A stretch of 64,000 bases of DNA from Candidatus Hadarchaeum sp. (GTDB lineage Archaea; Hadarchaeota; Hadarchaeia; Hadarchaeales; Hadarchaeaceae), in assembly GCF_038871235.1 (NCBI RefSeq), contig NZ_JAVZIN010000009.1, positions 1,441 through 65,440 of the forward strand. Direction: 5' to 3'. The notes under the pieces were generated by a model. The model saw only the letters and a list, made by a program, of their open reading frames with translations, was not told where the DNA came from and searched no databases. Below, piece after piece: positions 2,630-62,133 of this stretch; position 1 is the first letter of the stretch; each line of letters starts with the position of its first letter. The position numbers and the translations under genes were made by a program.

Positions 2630-3466
2630 ATGGGTGGAAAGCAAGCGGGAAAAAAGCCGATTGGGCCCTTTCAAGAAACAGAGTGGTTAAAGTTAGGAAT
2701 TCCTGGATTCAATGATTTGCTTGAGGAGGGGATTCCAAAAGGCATCAACATCTTGGTTTCAGGTGGCCCGGGAACAGGAAAGACCATTTTCTGTCTTCAG
2801 TCTCTTTACCATGCCGCTAGAGAGGGGCGTGACTGTCTTTACATCACCTTTGAAGAGAGCCCTAGAAAGTTGCAGCGGCATATGCAGCGCTTCGGTTGGG
2901 ATACCCAGGTGGTTGAGGAAAAGGAAGGTCTTCTTCACCTGAGGGCGGGAGGGACAGAAAAAGGAGGTTCTATTTTCATCCGAATGGTCGACCCATTTAG
3001 GATTACTCGAGCAGTCGAGGGGCTGGTGGAAAAAGCCGCAGGCAGGATTTCTATTGAAATGAAGGGGATACCCGATCTTATCCCAGCAAACCTATCACCA
3101 TACTTCATTGCTATAGACTCCCTTTCCGCCTTAGAGTCGGCTTTCATTCATAAGCCGGAGGGTTATCGTATCTACGTGGAGCAGATTTTCAGGGCCTTTG
3201 AGAAGTCGGGCGCGACCACATTTCTGATAACCGAGACTGAAGAATCCCCCACAAGGTTCTCTCGGTCTGGCATTGAAGAGTTCCTTGCCGATGGGGTCAT
3301 CGTGCTTTACAATACTAAGGTGAGAGGCCAGCGGGTTCAGGGAATTGAGATTCTCAAGATGAGAGGGGTTAAGCACGAGAGGAAGATCGCTCCTATTCAG
3401 ATTACCGCCGAGGGTATCAAGGTATTCCCGAGAGAAACTATTTATGGGACGGATGAACTGAAATGA
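2630..3466 (+). CDS. KaiC-like RecA-superfamily ATPase, single domain
   Basis: 278 aa. It has the N-terminal KaiC signature GIPGFNDLLEEGIPKGINILVSGGPGTGKT (Walker A), followed by LYITFEESPRKL (Walker B-like region) and the C-terminal KMRG motif. Confidence 0.85.
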   Translation: MGGKQAGKKPIGPFQETEWLKLGIPGFNDLLEEGIPKGINILVSGGPGTGKTIFCLQSLYHAAREGRDCLYITFEESPRKLQRHMQRFGWDTQVVEEKEGLLHLRAGGTEKGGSIFIRMVDPFRITRAVEGLVEKAAGRISIEMKGIPDLIPANLSPYFIAIDSLSALESAFIHKPEGYRIYVEQIFRAFEKSGATTFLITETEESPTRFSRSGIEEFLADGVIVLYNTKVRGQRVQGIEILKMRGVKHERKIAPIQITAEGIKVFPRETIYGTDELK

Positions 3467-3549
3467 AAGGCGCAGTGCTGAAAAAACCAATGGTTAAAGC
3501 TGGCTGGGATGAATGTGTTTCGACATTTTAGGGACCTAGGCACGATTAG

Positions 3550-5589
3550 GTGGGCAAGTTGAAGCTGGCGATGTTCACAGTAGGTTTATTAGTGATCCTA
3601 ATCTTCTTGAGTACAGTTCCTCTGGTGTCAGCGGGATCGTTCACGAAATATGCCACGACCGCAGATGGTGAGGGCTTTGCCAGTCCGGTAAACGCTATTG
3701 GACCGCCAAATGAGGCCCGCTCGGAGAGCTGGATGGGTAACGAGGGCTATCTCTGGGGCGGTGGTTTTGCTGCCGAAAGTGGGACCATTATAAAAGTTGT
3801 GATCAATGTGGTTTACAAAGTGGATAAGCCGGCGGTGGACGACATCACGACGTTGAAATATTCACTTGATGGTGGCGCTTCCTTTGGCGTTGCTCAACTC
3901 ACTTGGGTTCCGCAGGACACTTATTGGACTTTGAAATCTCTGGATATAACCTCAGATACCTCGGTCAATGGTGGCTCTTGGGACTGGACGGATATCAGCA
4001 ATCTTAGAATATACGTGCAGAATACGGTGAAGGGTGAAGGGGATTGGCCCGTAGATGACACAACGGTAATGGTGGATGCTTTTTATGTGGAGATAATTAC
4101 TTCAGAGACAACCTCACCAACCACACCGTTAACACCACTACCTCAAGCATTTGACTTTTCGATGAGCGCGTCTCCAGAAACTCTAACTGTCCAGCGGTCG
4201 GATTCGGTTTCGACCACGGTGAGCGTTAAGCTGGTTTCAGGTCTTCCTCAAGCAGTATTGCTCAGCGGTCTCTGGGTTGGCACTTCTCCTTCTGGGGTTA
4301 CTCCTTTTATGGGCCCGCTTTCAGGCACCCCCAGCTTCAACAGCACTCTGACTTTTACCGCCGATCTCAGTGCAACCACGGGGACATTTACCTATCAAGT
4401 GAAGGGCATCAGCGGTAACCTCGCCCGCACCGTCAATGTCCAGATAACGGTAGCAGAACTGAAGCTTCCGTCTGCCCCGCTGCCGCTGTTTCCAGACGAT
4501 GGAGCAGTACTTGACACCATCACTCCGACTTTTGATTGGACTGATGTCGTCGCCTCGACCTACACGCTAGAGATAGCCACCGACAATAACTTTTACCACG
4601 TTGTACTCACCAAGACCACCGTTGAGTCGATCGCGTCCCTTTCTCAGCTCGAGGCTCTCACGTACGGCACCAAATACTATTGGAGGGTCAGGGGAACCAA
4701 TTCTGCCGGGGCAGGGGAGTGGTCCTTGGTTAGATCGTTTACCGCCAAGGTTGGAGCCCCAAAGGTGACTGAGTTACTAATCAACTGGGGTGCCAACTAT
4801 GTGAATTCAATAAATGTTCTGCTGTCGATAAGTGCCATCAACGCGGTGCAGATGTCCTTTTCCACAGACGGAATAAATTGGAGCAGCTGGGAAGAATTTC
4901 AACCCACAAAGACGTTCGAGCTGCCGCCCCCTGATGGACCTAAAAATGTTTACGTTCGTGTGAGGGATGCCGCCGGAGATGTTGGACAATCTGTATTGGC
5001 GACGGTGGTGATGGACAGCACACCTCCGACCACGAGGCACTTCATCACTGGAAATCTACAGGGTGATGTCTATCAAGGTTCAGTGGTGGTCACGTTGGTT
5101 GCGGAGGATCAGACCTCAGGGGTCTTAGAGACAAGGTACCGGGTTGACAACGGTCTTTGGAACTCTGGGAATACCTTGGTTATAATTAAGGAGGGTGAGC
5201 ACAGGGTGGAATACTACTCCACTGATCGGGCAGGTAATATCGAGGCCACCAAATTCTTTGATGTCATCATCGCTACACCTTCAACCATACCGCCGTTTAT
5301 CCTGCAGTACTGGTGGGTAATGTTGTCCACCGCCGCGGCTGTGGTGATTGCTGCGGTTTTAGTTCATCGGAGGTTGAAGATAACCAGTCGGCTCAAGCAG
5401 ATAAGGAGGGAGAAGGCAGAGCTGCCCAAGCTGAAGCGGAAGGCGGAGATCGAGTACTTCAAGGAAGGCAAGATTTCTAGGGAGGCTTACGATAAGCTGG
5501 TCGAGGAGTACGAGCGACGCAAAGTAGAACTCGAAAAGGAGGAGAAAATGCTGCTGGCGAAGCTGAGGAAACAGAAAAATACGGGTTAA
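3550..5589 (+). CDS. Type-I membrane surface protein with signal peptide, Thr/Pro linker, FN3-like and Ig-like (YYSTDxAGNxE) domains, a C-terminal TM helix and a cytoplasmic K/E-rich coiled-coil tail
   Basis: 679 aa. The N-terminus is MGKLKLAMFTVGLLVILIFLSTVPLVSA. There is a TSETTSPTTPLTPLP linker. The WTDVVASTYTLEIATD...YYWRVRGTNSAGAGEWS stretch resembles an FN3 domain. The TM helix is FILQYWWVMLSTAAAVVIAAVLV, followed by about 80 aa of KxxE heptad-like tail. Confidence 0.75.
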   Translation: MGKLKLAMFTVGLLVILIFLSTVPLVSAGSFTKYATTADGEGFASPVNAIGPPNEARSESWMGNEGYLWGGGFAAESGTIIKVVINVVYKVDKPAVDDITTLKYSLDGGASFGVAQLTWVPQDTYWTLKSLDITSDTSVNGGSWDWTDISNLRIYVQNTVKGEGDWPVDDTTVMVDAFYVEIITSETTSPTTPLTPLPQAFDFSMSASPETLTVQRSDSVSTTVSVKLVSGLPQAVLLSGLWVGTSPSGVTPFMGPLSGTPSFNSTLTFTADLSATTGTFTYQVKGISGNLARTVNVQITVAELKLPSAPLPLFPDDGAVLDTITPTFDWTDVVASTYTLEIATDNNFYHVVLTKTTVESIASLSQLEALTYGTKYYWRVRGTNSAGAGEWSLVRSFTAKVGAPKVTELLINWGANYVNSINVLLSISAINAVQMSFSTDGINWSSWEEFQPTKTFELPPPDGPKNVYVRVRDAAGDVGQSVLATVVMDSTPPTTRHFITGNLQGDVYQGSVVVTLVAEDQTSGVLETRYRVDNGLWNSGNTLVIIKEGEHRVEYYSTDRAGNIEATKFFDVIIATPSTIPPFILQYWWVMLSTAAAVVIAAVLVHRRLKITSRLKQIRREKAELPKLKRKAEIEYFKEGKISREAYDKLVEEYERRKVELEKEEKMLLAKLRKQKNTG

Positions 5590-5678
5590 GTTAATGAAAA
5601 ATGTGAGACCTTGTGGTCATGATGAAATTTTAGTTTCAGCTTTCCCCATTAACATTTTTTAAATGAGGTGGTTAAAAC

Positions 5679-7967
5679 ATGCTCGAGGGGCTGCGGGAGG
5701 AATTTGAAAAGATTGGGTTAGAAGAACATCTGTGTTGTAATTATCAGAGTAAAAAGGAGCGGAATGTGGCCGTGGTTTCTTTTTTCAGCGCCGGGATCAA
5801 AAATAACGAGAAGTGTTTATTCGTGATGGACGAGAGCACCGAGGAGGAAGTCGTGCGAGCATTTGAAAGGGCAGGTGTCGATGTCAAGGAATACCTTAGG
5901 ACGAGACAGCTGGAATTGCTGAAGTTTGAGGAGATGTACCTTAAGGATGGCTATTTCGATCCTGATAGGATTTTGGAGAGAATAAGAGGAGCTGTGAAGG
6001 CAGCGATTAAGGATGGTTACCGGGGCCTCAGGTTTGCTGTCGAGGTGAGCTGTTCGCTCAGGAAACTGCCCGACTGTGAAAGGCTTATAGAGTATGAGAC
6101 TAAGATAAATAAACTCCTGTCGCAGAGCCGGATTTCCGCGCTTTGCCTTTACAACGAGAGAAAGTTTCCACCCAAGACCTTGATCGATGTTTTTTACACG
6201 CACCCCAAGGTCATTCTTCACGGTTCCGTCTACGATAACCCAGAGTTCCTTCGGCCAGAGGATTTTCTGGCGAAAGGGGAGGTAACTCAGGCGATTTATG
6301 AAAGAGTTAAGGAAACCGTTATCGAACGAATAAAACTGGAGAAGAAGCACAAGCTGGCTCAAGAGCAGACAAAACGGGATCAGGAGTATCTCCAGCTGCT
6401 CATCAACCGAATGCCCATCGGGCTGATCGTTTTGGATCGCGATTTCAAGGTCAGAACTTGGAACCCAGCGGCGACGAAGATACTGGGTTTCACACCTGAG
6501 GAGACGTTGGGAAAGCATCCCTACAACTTCTTGGTGCCAAAGGAGGTTCAGCCGCGGACAGACGAGATCTGGCGCCGGCTTCTTGCGGGGGACTTAACCG
6601 CACACAGCATCAACGAGAACATAACTAAAGATGGCCGGAGAATCGTTTGCGAATGGATGAACACGCCGCTGAGGGGTCCCGACGGCGGGATTTTAGGCGT
6701 TCTTTCCATGTTTCAGGATATAACCGAGCGCCAGCGGGCTGAGGAGGCTCTCAGGTCAAGCGAGGAACGTTACCGGACGCTGGTCGAGACGATGAATGAA
6801 GGGTTGGGTTACTTGGACGAAAACGGCGTCATCCTGCATGTCAATCAGAAGTACTGCGAGATGGTGGGGTACTCAAGGGATGAGATAATTGGCCGGCGCT
6901 TGACCGACTTTCTCGACGATGAAAATAGAAAGATCTTTGAAGAAAACTTCAAAAAGGCGCTGAGGGGGGAGAGGTGCGTTTACGAGCTCGTGAGGCTCAG
7001 AAAGGACGGAGGGAAGGTGTACACCCTTACCTCCACAGCACCTATGATTATTGACGGCAAGATTAAGGGCACGTTCGCCGTTATCACGGACATCACCCGG
7101 CTGAAAAAGATTGAATCGAGTTTAAGGGAAAGTGAATTGAAATACTCAACCATCGTGGAAAAGGGGCCAGAGGGCGTTGTTATCATCCAGGATGGAATAA
7201 TAAAATTTGTCAACAGAAGGTTGTCCGAGATCACTGGAATAAAAGTGGAGGAGTATCTTGGCAATTCATATCTTAATTTTATCGCCCCGGAATACCAGGA
7301 ACTCGCCGCTGAGCGATACACAAAGAGAATGTCCGGAGTTAAAGTTCCAGATCGTTATGAGATCGAGCTCATTGGCCGAGACGGTCGCCGCATCCCATTT
7401 GAGATAATAGCCACGGTGATAGACTACGAGGGTCGGCCCGCGGACATGGTGATACTTCGAGACATCACCGAGCGCAAAAACATGGAGAAAAAGGCGAGGG
7501 AAATGATATATGCGCTGTACGGAATTTCTATTGGAGAGTGCTACCTCGTTCCATCTATTGATATGGCTGTTAGGATTTTTGTCCAATTAGTGATTCATGA
7601 CGTCCCCGGATTGTGCATTTCTCGTGAAAAGCCGGAGAATTTGATTCAAAAAGGTGTTCCTGAGGATAAAATATTGGTCCTCTCTTCAGTGCCGGTAAAG
7701 GGATTTGAAAGCATTGACGGTCTGCAGGAGGTCAGCATGAAGATATCTGACTTCATTCAGAAAAATCTTAGATCAGTGGTCCTGCTAGGTGGACTGGAAT
7801 ATCTGATTAGCCGCTCGGGTTTTGACGCCGTTTACAGATTCCTCCAAGAGAAACGCTTTAGTTTCATGGAGGCCAGCGCAAATCTTTTGATACCTCTGGA
7901 CCTGAACACGTTGTCGGAGAAAGAGCGGGCTCAGTTGACCGCCGAGATCAAACTGTTGGGTCGCTAG
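5679..7967 (+). CDS. Cytoplasmic sensor protein with an N-terminal MEDS domain, three PAS domains and a C-terminal DUF835-like domain. There is no histidine kinase or other output domain
   Basis: 762 aa. The N-terminal 200 aa, HLCCNYQS...NEKCLFVMDESTEEEV...YLKDGYFDPDRIL...DGYRGLRFAVE...LIEYETKINKLL...ALCLYNERKF, matches the DcmR/MEDS pattern. There are three PAS cores: IGLIVLD...TWNPAATKILGF, LGYLDENGVILHVNQKYCEMVGY, and GVVIIQDGIIKFVNRRLSEITG. The C-terminal 150 aa, GECYLV...ISREKPENL...VLLGGLEYLISRSGFDAVYRFL, resembles the archaeal DUF835 family. Family names are from memory. Confidence 0.7.
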   Translation: MLEGLREEFEKIGLEEHLCCNYQSKKERNVAVVSFFSAGIKNNEKCLFVMDESTEEEVVRAFERAGVDVKEYLRTRQLELLKFEEMYLKDGYFDPDRILERIRGAVKAAIKDGYRGLRFAVEVSCSLRKLPDCERLIEYETKINKLLSQSRISALCLYNERKFPPKTLIDVFYTHPKVILHGSVYDNPEFLRPEDFLAKGEVTQAIYERVKETVIERIKLEKKHKLAQEQTKRDQEYLQLLINRMPIGLIVLDRDFKVRTWNPAATKILGFTPEETLGKHPYNFLVPKEVQPRTDEIWRRLLAGDLTAHSINENITKDGRRIVCEWMNTPLRGPDGGILGVLSMFQDITERQRAEEALRSSEERYRTLVETMNEGLGYLDENGVILHVNQKYCEMVGYSRDEIIGRRLTDFLDDENRKIFEENFKKALRGERCVYELVRLRKDGGKVYTLTSTAPMIIDGKIKGTFAVITDITRLKKIESSLRESELKYSTIVEKGPEGVVIIQDGIIKFVNRRLSEITGIKVEEYLGNSYLNFIAPEYQELAAERYTKRMSGVKVPDRYEIELIGRDGRRIPFEIIATVIDYEGRPADMVILRDITERKNMEKKAREMIYALYGISIGECYLVPSIDMAVRIFVQLVIHDVPGLCISREKPENLIQKGVPEDKILVLSSVPVKGFESIDGLQEVSMKISDFIQKNLRSVVLLGGLEYLISRSGFDAVYRFLQEKRFSFMEASANLLIPLDLNTLSEKERAQLTAEIKLLGR

Positions 7968-8184
7968 TTATTTTAATCATGTGTTCGTCAAGCTTTCGAG
8001 ATGTACCCCATGACAAAGGGACAAGTTGGAGATCTGGCCGTGGATTAAGATACGTTCGGTTCAGATGTCCGATGATTTGTATTGTTTTGATAACTTGATC
8101 AACGTTTTCTGGATCTGAGAGTCAGTTTACTATTGGCGGAGACATCTAGGATGTTCGCGGGCTGTAATCCCATTCGTTTTTAAC

Positions 8185-8895
8185 ATGGCTTGGGCTCGAC
8201 CCTTTTCGCCAATCTTCGAAAGTCTATTTAAAAACGGCTGCCTTAGTTTTCTCTGGACCGGCATGAGAAAGATCGACCGCGTTTACCGGGAAATTCTAAA
8301 CCGCTTTTACGCTAAGGGGGAACGCTTCTTCAACCAGAAGCAGCTTTCTCAGACCTGCAGGATCTCGCTTGGCACGATAAATCCGTTCATCAACAAGCTC
8401 GAGACCTTTGGAGCGATCGAGCGCAAGCCGCAGGGATTTCGCCTCATCGACCCCAAACGGGCCCTGATCAGCTGGGCTGTCACCCGTGACTTGGCCAAGG
8501 ACATCACCTACGCTACTTTCGTCCCGACCAGCCACATAGAGCTGGAGACCAAGCTGCCGCGCGGCTCGATCCTTACAGCCTATTCCGGTTTCCGTGCTAG
8601 GATTGGCTCGGTCCCAGGAGAGTACAACCAAGTCTTCGTCTACGCGGACGAGGAGGAGATGCGGCGGGCCTTCAAGCCCACGATGAGGGAGCGGAAGAAC
8701 TTAGTTGTGCTACAACCGGACGAGCACCTGAAGCGGCTGAGCAGCGACGGCGTGGCGCCCCTGGTTCAGATCTATGTTGACCTCTGGCAACTGGGGAAGC
8801 CGGCGAGCCGGTTTGTGGAGGAGCTGGAGAAGGAACTTTCACCAGCGCCCACCCGAGCGTTGGGTGAGGTGGCTAAGGCGCTCAGAATCAAATAG
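8185..8895 (+). CDS. Putative winged-helix transcription regulator (hypothetical). The true start may be the internal Met at 8263
   Basis: 236 aa. An HTH-like segment, YREILNRFYAKGERFFNQKQLSQTCRISLGTINPFINKLETFGAIERK, is followed by a domain of about 120 aa of unknown function. Confidence 0.4.
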   Translation: MAWARPFSPIFESLFKNGCLSFLWTGMRKIDRVYREILNRFYAKGERFFNQKQLSQTCRISLGTINPFINKLETFGAIERKPQGFRLIDPKRALISWAVTRDLAKDITYATFVPTSHIELETKLPRGSILTAYSGFRARIGSVPGEYNQVFVYADEEEMRRAFKPTMRERKNLVVLQPDEHLKRLSSDGVAPLVQIYVDLWQLGKPASRFVEELEKELSPAPTRALGEVAKALRIK

Positions 8896-8923
8896 AATCA
8901 ATAGCCAATGAACCCCAAGGAGG

Positions 8924-9331
8924 CTAGATTTTTTCCAATCTATTGATATCACGAACCGTGTCGAAACCTCTATCAAAGGAAATTATTTGCCGGATATCGC
9001 GGTCCTTCATCACGGCCACGCTCGTTGCGTCAGCGAAGCTAAGTTCTGGATATTTCTCAAACATGTGATATGCGGCGTTGAAAATATTCTCGTCGATGAA
9101 GATGATTTTAACATGCTCTGAATCCATGATTAATCTTGCCGCTTCCACAGATTGTTTCTTGCCGATTTTTTTCCTGATATAGGTGGTTACCTCGCTGAAG
9201 ATCAGATCAGTAATAATGGCTTTCCCGTGAGCGCCAGACAATATTGATTTTAATATCGGCACCGCCTCTCGATGGTGTTTGTCCTTAGGATTGGAGGCCG
9301 CAATCCAGACACCAGAATCAACGAGATACAT
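8924..9331 (-). CDS. vapC: PIN-domain toxin VapC
   Basis: 135 aa. It has the acidic PIN residues LVDSG, FADAT and ISFD. The ATGA/TAATG overlap with the upstream antitoxin gene fits a toxin-antitoxin pair. Confidence 0.8.
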   Translation of the reverse strand: MYLVDSGVWIAASNPKDKHHREAVPILKSILSGAHGKAIITDLIFSEVTTYIRKKIGKKQSVEAARLIMDSEHVKIIFIDENIFNAAYHMFEKYPELSFADATSVAVMKDRDIRQIISFDRGFDTVRDINRLEKI

Positions 9332-9585
9332 TATGTTCCTCCATAAACGACAGTATCTATCTCGGCGGTTGCGTCTGTTTTCGTCCTTGTCGGAAAAGCG
9401 CCAATTAGTTTCAATAGCGGGTCGGGGCCACCTTTTTTCCGGACTCTCACGTAAATTTCATCACCGATTAGAGTCCAGATAACAGTATCTCCAGGGCCGA
9501 TACCAAACTTTTCGCGTATTTCTGCAGGCAAAACTGTTTGAAAACCGCTTGATATTTTAGTCTCTATTTTCGCGGCCATATCCAT
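9331..9585 (-). CDS. vapB: AbrB/MazE-type antitoxin VapB
   Basis: 84 aa. The FQTVLPAEIREKFGIGPGDTVIW stretch is a swapped-hairpin SpoVT/AbrB motif. Its stop overlaps the vapC start. Confidence 0.7.
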   Translation of the reverse strand: MDMAAKIETKISSGFQTVLPAEIREKFGIGPGDTVIWTLIGDEIYVRVRKKGGPDPLLKLIGAFPTRTKTDATAEIDTVVYGGT

Positions 9586-9617
9586 TCCTCAAAATGAATT
9601 AGCATTTTTCAAAGTAT

Positions 9618-10175
9618 TTATACTTTTTTCATATTTTTAGCCAATACCGCTAGTACATCGTCGGCGATTGTTTTGGGCAGCTTCTCCCTGTTCTTTGGAG
9701 ATATCTCGTAAATTTTGACATCGGCGCGCCCCTTGACTTCACCGATGAAGCCCGTTGTGGTTCTCTGGTGGATTACAGCTAGCAGAGGCTTCAGCGAGTC
9801 CAGCGCGCAGAGAACCGCCCGCTTAAAATCCACACTGTAGAGCTCCATCGGCGCGATCTCGTCGATCACAACGAAGTCGGCCTCCTTTAGGGCTCGCTCG
9901 ATTGCCGCCTGGCTCAGCGCATCCACGTTGTCCACGTTGACTCGGTATTTACTGACTTGTGGGCCGTGGGGCTGATTCACGTGCGCCAGGATGCGCTCCT
10001 CTCCCGTCATCAGGTCGATTATCTTGAAGCCGACCCTAGTGCCCCTTTCCCTAATTTCTGGGCAGTAGATACCACCTGCTTTGAAGCCGCGCTCGCGCAA
10101 GATCGACACGGTCCGCTCCAGAACGGTGGTCTTGCCGCTGCCGGGAGGCCCGGTGATGAGAAAGTTGTTAGGCAT
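9618..10175 (-). CDS. Nucleoside-triphosphatase THEP1 (MJ1559-family NTPase)
   Basis: 185 aa. The Walker A motif is ITGPPGSGKTT and Walker B is VVIDEIAPME. The size and layout fit the archaeal THEP1 family. Confidence 0.8.
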   Translation of the reverse strand: MPNNFLITGPPGSGKTTVLERTVSILRERGFKAGGIYCPEIRERGTRVGFKIIDLMTGEERILAHVNQPHGPQVSKYRVNVDNVDALSQAAIERALKEADFVVIDEIAPMELYSVDFKRAVLCALDSLKPLLAVIHQRTTTGFIGEVKGRADVKIYEISPKNREKLPKTIADDVLAVLAKNMKKV

Positions 10176-10341
10176 GGGTGTATCAATTCTAGTTGAGGTA
10201 GAACTTAGTTAACACGGTTGCGGTTTGTTTGTTGTGCCCGGCTGTGAATAGTGTCGTCATGTAATTAAAGTGATTATTTGCGCGTTGACCATCATCTTGC
10301 TTTTTCGTTTTTTATGCGGCCTCAGTCCCAACTCTCTTGGG

Positions 10342-10357
10342 TGACATAGGTATGTCA
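10342..10357. promoter_or_regulatory. 16-bp palindrome TGACATA-GG-TATGTCA, site 1 of 3
   Basis: A perfect inverted repeat with 7-bp arms, sitting in a 650-bp ORF-free region. Confidence 0.4.
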
Positions 10358-10554
10358 TACCTTATTGTTTACGACATAGTGGAGCTGGAAAACGCTATTA
10401 GGCTGAGGGTAAGCCGGCGACTGCGGAAGCTGCGGGCCTCGAGATTACAGCAGTCAGTATGGGAACTTGATGGATTAGCAGATCTCTAAGACCTCGCTAT
10501 CTTGATAAAGTCAGCGGGTAAGTCCTTGTTGTAGAAAAGAGAATCGCGTATGAA

Positions 10555-10570
10555 TGACACAGCTATGTCA
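10555..10570. promoter_or_regulatory. Palindrome TGACACAGCTATGTCA, site 2 of 3
   Basis: 14 of 16 positions are palindromic and the site is centred on AGCT. It is related to site 1. Confidence 0.35.
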
Positions 10571-10629
10571 AACTAATTAAAGCGACAGAATTCTGTCTGC
10601 GAGCGACCATGCCGCTCAATCTGTGCATG

Positions 10630-10645
10630 TGATATAGCTATGTCA
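10630..10645. promoter_or_regulatory. Palindrome TGATATAGCTATGTCA, site 3 of 3
   Basis: 14 of 16 positions are palindromic. Together the three sites give the consensus TGACATAG[C/G]TATGTCA. Confidence 0.35.
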
Positions 10646-10831
10646 TGCCAAAACTGAGTTCTATACAAAACAATTTTTCTTTTTCGGCAAGCGAGCGCTG
10701 ACAAACTCTAGCCACAGCAGATTAAGCCTTCCGTAGACAAATGACTTCCAGCGCAATTGTTTTTTGAATGCACGACCGTGAACTGTTTAGAGCAGTTGGT
10801 TTTGGGAACGGCACGAAAGAGTTCTGACCGA

Positions 10832-11947
10832 CTAAACTCTGGCCACCAGAATGACGTCCTTCACTGAACTCTCCTGGAACTCATACTGCGCAATCAGCCG
10901 CCCGATCTCGTCAGGGACTTCGATCACATAGATCACCTGAAGGGGGTAGTGGCCGAGGTTGGCTTCGAGGCCGCGCTGCACGACCTCAGCCCCGTAGTCC
11001 TCCAAGTCGATGTTTTCCACCCCCTCGCTACCTGCGGAGAGCGCCTTCAGCGCCTCCCACACGTCGGTCGAGTAGGACTCCATCGTCGCCCCCTCAGAAA
11101 GTACCCAGGCGATGCGGGCGATGTCGGTCTGCGAGTAAATCACGGCGCGAACCACCGCGTTGAACCAAAGGTTCTCCATGATCCCGGTGGCAACATCATA
11201 CACGTAGATGTTGACCTTCATCCCGGCTCTGAGCGTCGGCGTCCTCTGAAAGACATCCAGAACGGGTACCTCAACCGTGCCAAGCTCTTCAAACTTCAGC
11301 TCTCGCAGTCCCTCCCAGCCCAGCCCGGCGATATAGCTCCGCGCCTCCTCCTTGGTCAGGTAGCCGCCGGAGGTCGCCCCGCCGCTGAACATGGCTAAGT
11401 TGTCACCGAGTTGGCTCAGCTCCGCGCTGTGCAGGCTTCTCCAGACCACCGTTGCCTTTTCGTTGATCTCCGCTCGGCAGGCCTCAAGCTGGGTCAGGGT
11501 GGTCTTGGAGTTGACCTCAGCCACCATCGTTTGCCTGAACTCGGCCAGCTCCGCTGCGGCCATCTTCCCGGCACCCCCGTCCGCCGAGTAGTAGTTGCCC
11601 TCAGCGGCAGTGGCTACCAGATCCAAGAGCTCCCTCCTGAGCTGCTCCACCTGAATGGCCGCGTTCACCTCGACTAGGGTAGCCTGCACTTCCGCGACCG
11701 AGCCCGCCCTCTGAACCCGTGAGGAGCAGTCGAGGGCCTTGGTGGTTGCCGCCTCTGTCCCGATGGACATCAGCCCGTTGATTCGGTCGAAGGCTGCCAG
11801 CTTGACAGCGTTCAGCTCCTCGGCGGCGGGTTTGGCGATGAAAAAGTAGTAGATTCCGAGGGCTACCAGCCCTATTATCAGGAAGACCACCGCGGCCCCA
11901 ACGATGGGTCTGGCATCGATTTTTCTCACGATGGAACCACCAACCAA
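10832..11947 (-). CDS. Membrane-anchored hypothetical protein with an N-terminal TM helix and a large extracytoplasmic domain
   Basis: 371 aa. The TM helix is IVGAAVVFLIIGLVALGIYYFFI. No motif I recognise. Confidence 0.5.
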   Translation of the reverse strand: MVGGSIVRKIDARPIVGAAVVFLIIGLVALGIYYFFIAKPAAEELNAVKLAAFDRINGLMSIGTEAATTKALDCSSRVQRAGSVAEVQATLVEVNAAIQVEQLRRELLDLVATAAEGNYYSADGGAGKMAAAELAEFRQTMVAEVNSKTTLTQLEACRAEINEKATVVWRSLHSAELSQLGDNLAMFSGGATSGGYLTKEEARSYIAGLGWEGLRELKFEELGTVEVPVLDVFQRTPTLRAGMKVNIYVYDVATGIMENLWFNAVVRAVIYSQTDIARIAWVLSEGATMESYSTDVWEALKALSAGSEGVENIDLEDYGAEVVQRGLEANLGHYPLQVIYVIEVPDEIGRLIAQYEFQESSVKDVILVARV

Positions 11948-11953
11948 AGGTAG

Positions 11954-12703
11954 TTGAAGAGAGAGGGTTATTTAAAATCTGAGTTTCAGATGGACAAACA
12001 ATTCCTGCGCGAAAAGATCTGGCGGGAGCTGGAGGCCAGCGGGGCAGCGGCTTTTCCCAAGCCAATCAGGGGCCGAATTCCCAACTTCGTGGGCAGTTCG
12101 GAGGCAGCCCGCAGGCTGGGCTCGTTGCCGGCCTATCTCTCAGCCAAGTCCATTTTTGTGAACCCCGACGCCGCGCAGCTGGCCGTCAGGGAGATGGCAC
12201 TGCGCGGGGGAAAACAGCTGCTGATGGCAACACCGAGGTTGAGACATGGTTTCGTCCTGATCGACCCGGCCAAGGTCGTCGATTTCAGGCAGGCAGCCAG
12301 CATCGGCGGCGCCTTCAGACACGGCAGAAAGGTGAGCCCCCGCGGTCTTAAGGTGGATTTGGTCGTGGAAGGCTCGGTGGCGGTGGACAGGATGGGTGGC
12401 AGGGTGGGAAAGGGAGGAGGTTATGGTGATTTGGAGTTCGCCATTCTGTGTGAGCTGGGCACAGTCACTGAGGAAACACCGGTGGTGACCACGGTCCACC
12501 CGCTGCAGATAGTTGCTCGGGTGCCGATGGAGGAGCATGATGTCCCCGTCGACTACATCGTGACCCCAGATCAGATCATCAAAACATCGCGCCATTATCC
12601 CAGGCCTTCTGGAATCGATTGGGATCTCCTCCCCGCCGATGCCCTTAAGCAGATACCGCTCCTTGCTGAATTGAGGAAAGAACATGATCATGGGTGCCGA
12701 TGA
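11954..12703 (+). CDS. 5-formyltetrahydrofolate cyclo-ligase family protein. The true start is probably the Met at 11990
   Basis: The GKGGGYGDLEF motif matches the family GGGYYDR motif, and the size is about 235 aa. The 3' end overlaps the rnhB start. Confidence 0.65.
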   Translation: MKREGYLKSEFQMDKQFLREKIWRELEASGAAAFPKPIRGRIPNFVGSSEAARRLGSLPAYLSAKSIFVNPDAAQLAVREMALRGGKQLLMATPRLRHGFVLIDPAKVVDFRQAASIGGAFRHGRKVSPRGLKVDLVVEGSVAVDRMGGRVGKGGGYGDLEFAILCELGTVTEETPVVTTVHPLQIVARVPMEEHDVPVDYIVTPDQIIKTSRHYPRPSGIDWDLLPADALKQIPLLAELRKEHDHGCR

Positions 12704-61770: not shown

Positions 61771-62133
61771 TTAAATCGTGACGTGATAGTTTACTCGGGC
61801 CCGTGGCCTAGCTAGGATAAGGCGGCAAGTTGAAAAACCCGCAGGCCTTCTATCCCGGCGAGGAGAGCTGCATATCGTGGGTTCAAATCCCACCGGGCCC
61901 GCCTCTTCAACCCTTTCTTGGGAAGAAAGCGTTGACGGAAAGAAATTATTTTCGCCGTTTTTGTCAAAGTCCGCCCCATTTTCCATTCCCAGGGCTTTCC
62001 TGAGTTGATATTCCAGAAAGCGGCTCAGGTTTATGCCTCTTTCCCTGGCGGCTTTGACGATCTCGGGGTCAAGGGTCAGGCAGGTGATTTTCCGTTTGCG
62101 TTTGCGTGCATATACACATACATATTCAGGCAT
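61771..62133 (-). CDS. Putative small ribbon-helix-helix (CopG-like) protein. The 3' third of the ORF runs antisense across the tRNA gene, so the C-terminus is doubtful
   Basis: From an internal Met, the stretch KITCLTLDPEIVKAARERGINLSRFLEYQLRKAL is RHH-like. The upstream extension and the portion overlapping the tRNA are probably not genuine. Confidence 0.3.
   Translation of the reverse strand: MPEYVCVYARKRKRKITCLTLDPEIVKAARERGINLSRFLEYQLRKALGMENGADFDKNGENNFFPSTLSSQERVEEAGPVGFEPTICSSPRRDRRPAGFSTCRLILARPRARVNYHVTI
61797..61901 (+). tRNA. tRNA gene with about 30 extra nucleotides, a putative intron. The isotype is unresolved
   Basis: The acceptor stem is GGGCCCG/CGGGCCC. T8 and G9 are present. 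The D-stem is GCCT/AGGC with a D-loop AGCTAGGATA. The T-arm is GTGGG-TTCAAAT-CCCAC, and the discriminator is G. Between D-arm and T-arm there are 53 nt where about 23 are expected. Confidence 0.7.

Follow-up and report, generated by a model that had tools for sequence, protein, structure and literature searches.

A KaiC-family ATPase paired with a tail-anchored surface protein: a candidate archaeal signalling unit in a Candidatus Hadarchaeum locus

The window analysed here is a 64,000-nucleotide stretch (positions 1,441 to 65,440 of contig NZ_JAVZIN010000009.1) from Candidatus Hadarchaeum sp., an uncultured hot-subsurface archaeon. The element under study is a set of three co-directional genes encoding a KaiC-family ATPase (gene 1), a single-pass surface protein with a charged cytoplasmic tail (gene 2) and a protein with MEDS, PAS and DUF835 domains (gene 3). 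The conserved core of this locus is the pair formed by the KaiC ATPase and the tail-anchored surface protein, and the MEDS-PAS-DUF835 gene is a lineage-specific accessory. Since the pairing of KaiC and tail recurs in distant archaea, it probably represents a genuine signalling unit that has gone largely undescribed. A sequence-only reading of the same DNA had proposed a candidate KaiC-centred signalling module; its three open reading frames (ORFs) stand with exactly the coordinates listed below, and the proposal is supported by the domain calls, by the recurrence of the gene triad and by the wider pairing of KaiC with surface proteins. The functions discussed here are all inferred from the domains of the proteins and from the genes around them.

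The core features, in window coordinates, are as follows.

2630–3466, + strand: gene 1, single-domain KaiC-family ATPase of 278 residues (PF06745, E = 4.2e-54)
2762–2785, + strand: Walker A (P-loop) motif GGPGTGKT of gene 1, residues 45–52 (orthologue alignment)
3550–5589, + strand: gene 2, type-I single-pass surface protein of 679 residues (profiles, hydropathy, AlphaFold, Foldseek)
5296–5370, + strand: transmembrane (TM) helix of gene 2, residues 583–607, with YWW on the outer and HRRLK on the inner side (Kyte–Doolittle)
5371–5586, + strand: cytoplasmic tail of gene 2, residues 608–679, proposed KaiC-docking module (conservation, profile search, KaiC adjacency)
5679–7967, + strand: gene 3, cytoplasmic MEDS-PAS3-DUF835 sensor protein of 762 residues (Pfam)
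5727–6206, + strand: MEDS domain of gene 3, residues 17–176, inactivated KaiC-like fold lacking the P-loop (PF14417)
6387–7508, + strand: three PAS domains of gene 3, residues 237–610 (Pfam, TIGR00229)
7563–7946, + strand: DUF835 domain of gene 3, residues 629–756, predicted inactivated KaiC/RecA fold in the transmitter position

Genes 1 and 2 are 87 bp apart in the window. The products of genes 2 and 3 are identical to annotated Candidatus Hadarchaeum sp. proteins from metagenome-assembled genomes (MAGs), with the NCBI annotation placing the start of gene 2 three codons downstream.

Pairing of KaiC and tail proteins across archaea

Loci fetched for comparison are designated by L-numbers, and many of them are related Hadarchaeales or MAG fragments; taxonomy is known for part of the non-Hadarchaeal loci. 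A metagenome scan with a seven-sequence alignment of the tail returned 21 loci. The forward adjacency test used 43 loci that contain a tail ORF and were not chosen via KaiC, 27 of which have enough flanking sequence to be judged, and assigned genes to the KaiC subfamily at a hidden Markov model E value below 1e-30. A KaiC-subfamily gene lies at most 3.5 kb from the tail ORF in 26 of the 27 informative loci, mostly at a distance of 150 bp or less. Control loci whose surface proteins share the Ig/OmpL47 domains but have no tail, some of them bacterial, gave a KaiC match in 0 of 61 cases (∼0.8 Mb). In the reverse direction, four subfamily KaiCs on long contigs (50–62% identity) were inspected, and tail proteins adjoin three of them; the fourth has DUF835, DUF7504, histidine kinase (HK) and receiver (REC) genes as neighbours.

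The pair occurs in at least five gene orders. These include KaiC followed directly by the tail protein; KaiC, a small ORF, a giant tail protein and a second tail protein; two tail proteins followed by KaiC; an HK gene, KaiC, a second KaiC-like gene on the opposite strand and the tail protein; and divergent forms. In L086, which is from Woesearchaeota, a 509-residue KaiC protein precedes a tail protein of 3027 residues, and in L087 the neighbours of the tail proteins are KaiC, DUF7504, an HK gene, three REC genes and the beginning of one more.

Some of these loci share further small features. An ORF of 64–66 residues lies between KaiC and the giant tail protein in L086 (5804–6004) and in L109 (8090–8284), where the giant protein has 1977 residues, and in both loci the giant is followed by a second, short protein of 266–303 residues with its own tail module (L086 15081–15992 and L109 14214–15014). 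Tandem tail proteins are also found in L031 and in L098–L101.

The surface protein and its tail

Searches of gene 2 against Pfam gave Ig/fn3 matches only, all sub-threshold, and NCBIfam identified an OmpL47-type β-barrel domain (E = 2e-16, residues 508–573). Hydropathy analysis shows an N-terminal signal-peptide-like segment at about residues 5–28 and a single TM segment at 583–607, the N-terminus and this segment being the only regions in which Kyte–Doolittle 19-residue windows exceed 1.6. The TM segment is followed by HRRLK and then by a 72-residue tail, 52% of which is Lys, Arg, Glu or Asp. The AlphaFold model (predicted local distance difference test score, pLDDT, 80) contains four confident β-sandwich domains between residues 200 and 575; its TM helix runs on to residue 638, turns at EGKIS and is followed by a second helix at 644–678. 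Foldseek matches to this model are tandem Ig/FN3 ectodomains, with receptor-type ectodomains as the best. The earlier description of a type-I protein with an Ig/FN3-like ectodomain, one TM helix and a charged tail is thus borne out, apart from the length of the tail, which is about 72 rather than 80 residues.

Across the family the distal ectodomain is variable (a 180-residue domain in the window, β-propeller-like repeats or lectin-like domains elsewhere), and the constant part comprises the stalk, the YWW-TM helix and the tail. The tail motif is RLKxI..EK.EL..LK.EAE.KYFKEGxISRxxYD..YERR..ELEKEE, with two helices parted by the KYFKEGxISRxxYD turn, and W18 in the TM region is invariant in tail-module alignment A3. 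When 1.84 billion representatives were searched with a profile of the TM-plus-tail module, 795 proteins matched at E ≤ 1e-3, and 145 matched at E ≤ 1e-10. Most of the matches inspected are large surface proteins of up to 3027 residues in which the module is C-terminal. Two tail clusters that were looked up have known source names, one being Hadesarchaea and the other Woesearchaeota. Gene 2, with a YWW-TM segment, a KYFKEGxISRxxYD-type tail and a KaiC gene nearby, belongs to the KaiC-associated tail-anchored surface proteins, a grouping that is defined here by these features.

No Pfam or NCBIfam model matched the TM-plus-tail module. The G-x-I-S/T-x3-Y/F pattern may resemble that of SHOCT domains; Pfam gave no match to the tail even at E ≤ 10. 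The NCBI name 'LapA family protein' carried by one gene 2 homologue was rejected, as were CoaP_CTERM, which scores 16 bits against a 35-bit cut-off and covers the TM region only, and the insignificant matches to SLATT, EccE and PspM.

The KaiC-family ATPase

Gene 1 scores 183.8 bits against PF06745 (cut-off 26.6), with residues 21–269 aligned to profile positions 2–230 of 231, in agreement with the initial assignment as a single-domain KaiC/RecA-like ATPase. Its best PDB sequence matches are KaiC proteins (8zn5, E = 2.6e-51). The Walker A motif GGPGTGKT, the FEE glutamate pair, the Walker B DS (IDS) and the KMRG..H motif are conserved in 14 gene 1 orthologues, and Walker A is kept in 11 of the 12 subfamily KaiCs compared across lineages; these motifs predict a catalytically competent ATPase. 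The subfamily KaiCs are 44–62% identical across lineages, compared with about 27% identity to the second KaiC-like proteins encoded nearby. Gene 1 falls far below the NCBIfam cut-offs for circadian KaiC (TIGR02655 and NF006799; 104.6 versus 546 bits and 127 versus 408 bits) and far below the ArlH equivalog cut-off (29.6 versus 215 bits), and no arlI or arlJ gene was found in the called neighbourhoods of the locus.

The second, divergent KaiC-like gene is seen in one locus group, where it separates the subfamily KaiC gene from the gene of the tail protein and is read from the other strand (L014 2237–3013, L021 6300–7076, L106 4499–5365 and L107 2735–3535, all − strand). It matches PF06745 at E of about 1e-20 and also DUF7504. 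The L021 copy, the one that was checked, has lost Walker A.

The MEDS-PAS3-DUF835 protein

The N-terminal MEDS domain of gene 3 scores 156.7 bits against PF14417 (cut-off 29.8; E = 5.7e-46; profile positions 2–161 of 161) and the C-terminal DUF835 domain 72.6 bits against PF05763 (cut-off 33.1; E = 3.4e-20; profile positions 7–135 of 136). Between them PAS_4, PAS_9 and PAS each match three stretches at E of about 1e-45, with TIGR00229 at E = 5e-80. All three assignments of the initial reading therefore stand far above the curated cut-offs. Its description of MEDS as an inactivated KaiC/RecA derivative also holds: the domain has a weak Pfam KaiC match (E = 8.9e-5), aligns with KaiC orthologues in hhalign at a probability of 81% (E = 1.2e-5) and has the archaeal KaiC-like protein SSO2452 as its best PDB sequence match (E = 0.007), and 0 of 16 MEDS domains contain a Walker A motif. 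The DUF835 domain has an AlphaFold model of pLDDT 95.5, the best fold matches of which are archaeal KaiC-like proteins, ArlH and KaiC, with Elp4–6 and Rad51 paralogues also among the matches; a Walker A motif is found in 0 of 12 DUF835 domains. On these grounds MEDS, by sequence comparison, and DUF835, by predicted fold, are each an inactivated KaiC-like domain that has lost the P-loop, and the architecture of gene 3 is pseudo-KaiC, three PAS domains, pseudo-KaiC. Galperin et al. (2018; PMC5847659), with reference to Makarova et al. (2017), list both domains as 'iKaiC'.

Pfam and NCBIfam searches found no HisKA, HATPase_c, GGDEF or helix–turn–helix (HTH) domain in gene 3, and no kinase core or receiver domain occurs in genes 1–3, which places the locus outside two-component systems. 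The earlier statement that gene 3 has no recognizable output is accurate for the classical outputs (HK, GGDEF and HTH) and is overstated otherwise because an existing catalogue counts DUF835 among the outputs, rather than the inputs, of archaeal response regulators (PMC5847659).

The first PAS domain (PAS1; residues ∼235–355, window 6381–6743) is unusually conserved across very different architectures, with the motif MPIGLIVxD.DFRV..WNPAA.KI.G...EALGKHPY..VP.E.QP..D..WRRLL.GD.TAHS.NEN.TKDGR.I.C.W.NTPL. It is shared with P0018, P0022, P0037, P0039, P0077, P0079 and P0113, one protein being annotated as from a candidate-phylum bacterium, and in several proteins DUF835 comes immediately after it. 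Among solved structures it is most closely related to haem-PAS sensors such as DosP, at an E value of only about 2e-6.

Conservation of the triad and the variable third gene

The complete triad recurs in other Hadarchaeales at 49–64% identity of gene 3 and with differing flanks. It is found in the same gene order in L001 (gene 3 64% identical, both flanks unrelated to the window), in L002 (gene 3 49% identical, downstream genes shared with the window) and in L096 (both flanks unlike the window), and it is split across contigs in L023, L016 and L010. In L007, L008 and L088 the KaiC gene, the surface-protein gene and a MEDS-encoding sequence are followed by the contig end. These loci are all from Hadarchaeales. 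The KaiC gene often runs into the surface-protein gene, as in L001 and L005, where the two share 4 nt.

The identity of the third gene varies. It encodes MEDS-PAS5-DUF835 in L023 and DHH-DHHA1-PAS2-DUF835 in the metagenome contigs L089 (981–3239) and L090 (2826–5117), where a phosphoesterase takes the place of MEDS. The close gene 3 paralogues P0003 and P0006 are MEDS-PAS4-HisKA-HATPase_c proteins, P0003 being about 63% identical over MEDS-PAS3. In L106 an X-DUF835 gene and an HK gene lie upstream of KaiC; HK genes adjoin the KaiC/tail pair in L012, L014, L015, L020 and L021; MEDS-HK, REC and HK genes lie near KaiC in L091; and in L111 (4226–6595) two adjacent HisKA_7TM-DUF835 genes stand just upstream of a subfamily KaiC, DUF7504, HK and REC genes. 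DUF835 thus repeatedly stands at the position of a kinase core, after MEDS-PAS, after 7TM sensors and after DHH-PAS.

One apparent exchange was set aside. The DNA of L005 and that of L001 are 96% identical from the upstream gene across KaiC and the surface-protein gene to MEDS-PAS3 (L005 8001–11027; L001 8001–10448), after which L001 continues into DUF835 and L005 into PAS4-HisKA-HATPase_c. Because L005 is L001-like only as far as the end of PAS3, the rest of it and its downstream genes being like the paralogous locus L006, it is either a recombinant of paralogues or an assembly chimera and is not used as evidence of a clean orthologous swap of DUF835 and kinase. In L006 itself (4636–12497; Hadesarchaea MAG-18), the MEDS-PAS-HK paralogue is followed on its 3′ side by mobile-element-type genes, namely ParB-like, MT-A70 methyltransferase, Prim-Pol and D5_N helicase genes.

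Proposed mechanism and alternatives

Physical coupling of some kind between KaiC, the tail and the pseudo-KaiC domains appears quite likely by analogy with other KaiC-like and RecA-fold assemblies. The KaiC oligomer would dock on clustered tails at the membrane, for which the binding of ArlH to ArlX is a precedent, and the pseudo-KaiC domains of gene 3 could insert into or cap this oligomer in the manner of other dead RecA-fold proteins, so that whatever the PAS domains sense would change its oligomerization, ATPase activity or autophosphorylation. Since DUF835 occupies the HK-core position and no HK or REC match was found in the whole 64-kb window, DUF835 is read as a putative transmitter that feeds KaiC, with a signal that would pass from PAS through DUF835 and KaiC to the tail. 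KaiC would then act on the tail to alter the clustering, conformation or retention of the surface protein, the net effect being inside-out control of an adhesin-like or receptor-like protein. The whole statement, that the locus encodes a membrane-coupled KaiC signalling unit including the inside-out direction, is advanced tentatively and falls somewhat short of an even chance.

A broader proposal, held a little more loosely still, is that the TM-plus-tail module serves as a dedicated docking site for one KaiC subfamily and so defines a new class of archaeal single-pass receptors or adhesins (∼400 to more than 3000 residues; Hadarchaeota, Woesearchaeota and others). The KaiC oligomer would be the transducer in this class, and the pseudo-KaiC proteins (MEDS, DUF835 and DUF7504) may be exchangeable subunits that wire PAS sensors and two-component systems to it.

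Several observations weigh against the membrane-coupled, inside-out reading. The tail protein of L019 has no KaiC within 5–8 kb, and the KaiC/tail loci L018 and L086 are without any sensor gene. Many of the supporting loci are from related Hadarchaeales and their counts are not phylogenetically independent, and the 61 control loci include bacteria, which rarely carry KaiC paralogues. The hhalign comparison of DUF835 with KaiC orthologues is weak (probability 10%), so that the link of this domain to KaiC rests on the predicted fold. Finally, MEDS occupies the classical HK input position, which fits the opposite flow of information, from KaiC to MEDS.

This opposite flow is the basis of the strongest alternative, in which the pair is an extracellular input for cytoplasmic sensors: the ectodomain would bind a ligand or surface, clustering of the tails would alter the KaiC oligomer, MEDS would read this change and PAS-DUF835 or PAS-HK would relay it. 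Such an outside-in receptor is possible rather than probable, and it accounts for the observations nearly as well as inside-out control does. In every case, the MEDS-PAS-HK paralogues and the MEDS-HK protein beside KaiC in L091 among them, MEDS takes the N-terminal place of a sensor, and HK and REC genes flank the KaiC/tail pair in L012, L014, L015, L020, L021, L087, L097, L106, L107 and L112. A variable N-terminal ectodomain (β-propeller-like or lectin-like) on a constant stalk and tail would suit a receptor, as would the receptor-type Ig/FN3 ectodomains that are the best Foldseek matches, and 62% of archaeal HKs are without TM segments (PMC5847659). However, the window encodes no output beyond DUF835 within its 64 kb, the catalogued role of DUF835 is that of an output, and it is hard to see how a signal would travel from ectodomains of up to 3000 residues through a single TM helix.

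In place of signalling, KaiC could act as an assembly, anchoring, localization or quality-control factor for tail-anchored surface proteins, with gene 3 as an independent neighbour. The presence of the tail on very diverse and often giant ectodomains would be consistent with such a housekeeping function, as would the occurrence of the pair without sensor genes in L018, L086 and L109 and the lack of conservation of the third gene beyond close relatives. It is nevertheless improbable, given that MEDS, DUF835, HK or REC genes are also present in 20 of 29 KaiC/tail loci, that even L109 and L110, which are poor in sensor genes, carry pseudo-KaiC genes (DUF7504/DUF7090) beside the pair, and that the pair has no associated genes for a translocon, a sortase-like protein or pilus assembly.

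Inherited synteny of three functionally unlinked genes is very unlikely and already largely refuted. Most triad loci come from the single order Hadarchaeales and L002 shares the downstream genes of the window, as simple inheritance would predict, but the triad is kept in L001 and L096 despite differences in both flanks, and the KaiC/tail adjacency survives the rearranged gene orders described above, reaches Woesearchaeota and is not seen in the control loci. The faintest prospect is a timing oscillator in which KaiC would play the part that it has in the cyanobacterial KaiABC clock, which the bona fide KaiCs among the best PDB sequence matches might suggest, but gene 1 has a single domain rather than the CI–CII tandem, scores far under the circadian cut-offs and has no apparent KaiA or KaiB in its locus.

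Relation to known systems

The idea that KaiC is an archaeal signalling hub, and that MEDS and DUF835 are KaiC domains that have lost their activity, is a computational proposal of Makarova, Galperin and Koonin (mBio, 2017) that is summarized in PMC5847659. In that scheme, as in the window, a single-domain KaiC ATPase is encoded with inactivated-KaiC proteins (MEDS, DUF835 or DUF7504) fused to PAS, REC or HK domains. The locus has the corresponding gene content, a KaiC ATPase and an iKaiC protein with sensor domains, and the MEDS-PAS-DUF835 protein is a further member of the described kind. The arrangement, which the earlier reading set apart from described two-component and chemotaxis arrangements, is therefore not foreign to every published scheme, the KaiC hub having been proposed in 2017. 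What differs here is the constant partner, a single-pass surface protein whose conserved, unannotated tail is tied to one KaiC subfamily. In the accessible literature, a scope that excludes Makarova et al. (2017), no description was found of one KaiC subfamily being tightly tied to such a TM-plus-tail module on diverse surface proteins in different archaeal lineages.

The closest mechanistic precedent is the crenarchaeal archaellum motor, in which the single-TM protein ArlX has a cytosolic ring that is bound by ArlH (FlaH), a single-domain KaiC-like protein whose oligomeric state switches on autophosphorylation (PMC8978795). Both systems combine a KaiC-like protein with a single-TM partner, binding being proposed in the present case, and ArlH is among the best fold matches of DUF835. 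They differ in that no ArlI, ArlJ or archaellin genes lie near the locus, that gene 1 is under the ArlH cut-off and that ArlX is essentially without an ectodomain, whereas the gene 2 protein has about 550 extracellular residues. CirA illustrates that KaiC-like proteins regulate surface-related behaviour (PMC10983859).

Gene 3 resembles MEDS-containing histidine kinases and RsbA-type regulators in having an N-terminal MEDS domain followed by PAS, but it ends in DUF835 instead of a kinase core. With the archaeal REC-DUF835 and REC-PAS-PAS-DUF835 response regulators (PMC5847659) it shares a C-terminal DUF835 preceded by PAS, but it lacks a receiver and carries a second pseudo-KaiC domain, MEDS, at its N-terminus. 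Gene 1 and the KaiC of the KaiABC clock have a homologous ATPase core (Walker A, catalytic glutamates and KMRG); a single domain, the presence of a membrane partner and the lack of a visible KaiA or KaiB in the locus set the present system apart. Receptor-type protein tyrosine phosphatases, integrins and LapA/LapD are comparable by analogy only: they likewise have a tandem Ig/FN3 ectodomain, one TM segment and a short tail with a cytoplasmic regulator, but their cytoplasmic part is not homologous and the partner proposed here is a RecA-fold ATPase.

Neighbouring features

The features that border the core genes are listed below.

2–2521, − strand: N-terminal part (at least 840 residues) of a giant surface protein that leaves the window at its start (stop-free frame; context, not core)
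2522–2629, no strand: 108-bp intergenic region between the divergent giant surface-protein and KaiC genes, presumed promoter (sequence)
8263–8895, + strand: downstream gene of about 210 residues, weakly winged-helix-like and of uncertain role

The giant protein is 45–48% identical by tblastn to proteins of 1694 to more than 2466 residues in the same position in L001, L005 and L007. A Pfam search of the part encoded in the window gave no match, and the tail module was not detected in the complete L007 copy.

The ∼210-residue gene lies directly 3′ of the MEDS-PAS-DUF835 gene in the window, in L002 (77% identity) and in L023, and a homologue is absent at L001 and L096. It was considered as the output regulator and set aside, the HTH_24 match being sub-threshold (E = 0.069) and the gene being kept in three close relatives only; it may be an accessory or output protein, or a neighbour through synteny alone. 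Two small overlapping genes at 8924–9585 (− strand; 135 and 84 residues) resemble a VapC(PIN)/AbrB-type toxin–antitoxin pair and are candidates for such a function. At 61797–61901 (+ strand) Rfam identified a transfer RNA (tRNA) of 105 nt (43.5 bits) against a model of 71 positions, which presumably contains an intron; an ARAGORN run on the window reported no tRNA. An anti-phage defence role of the locus was also rejected, as PADLOC gave only a P-loop-level match of KaiC to mad8 (E = 8e-6) and nothing for the other genes.

Biological implications

The roles of many archaeal KaiC-like ATPases are, to our knowledge, almost entirely unknown, phenotypes being known to us only for ArlH, GvpD and CirA. 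Most archaeal histidine kinases are cytoplasmic, and it is therefore a puzzle how information crosses the membrane. A KaiC subfamily that is tied to a tail on diverse surface proteins gives the proposed KaiC hub a concrete membrane link. The TM-plus-tail module is also new to annotation, since public data contain 795 profile matches to it and neither Pfam nor NCBIfam has a model, and the recurrent replacement of a kinase by DUF835 offers a handle on the role of this domain. The pairing suggests a way in which uncultured archaea, DPANN episymbionts among them, may regulate their giant surface proteins or use them as sensors.

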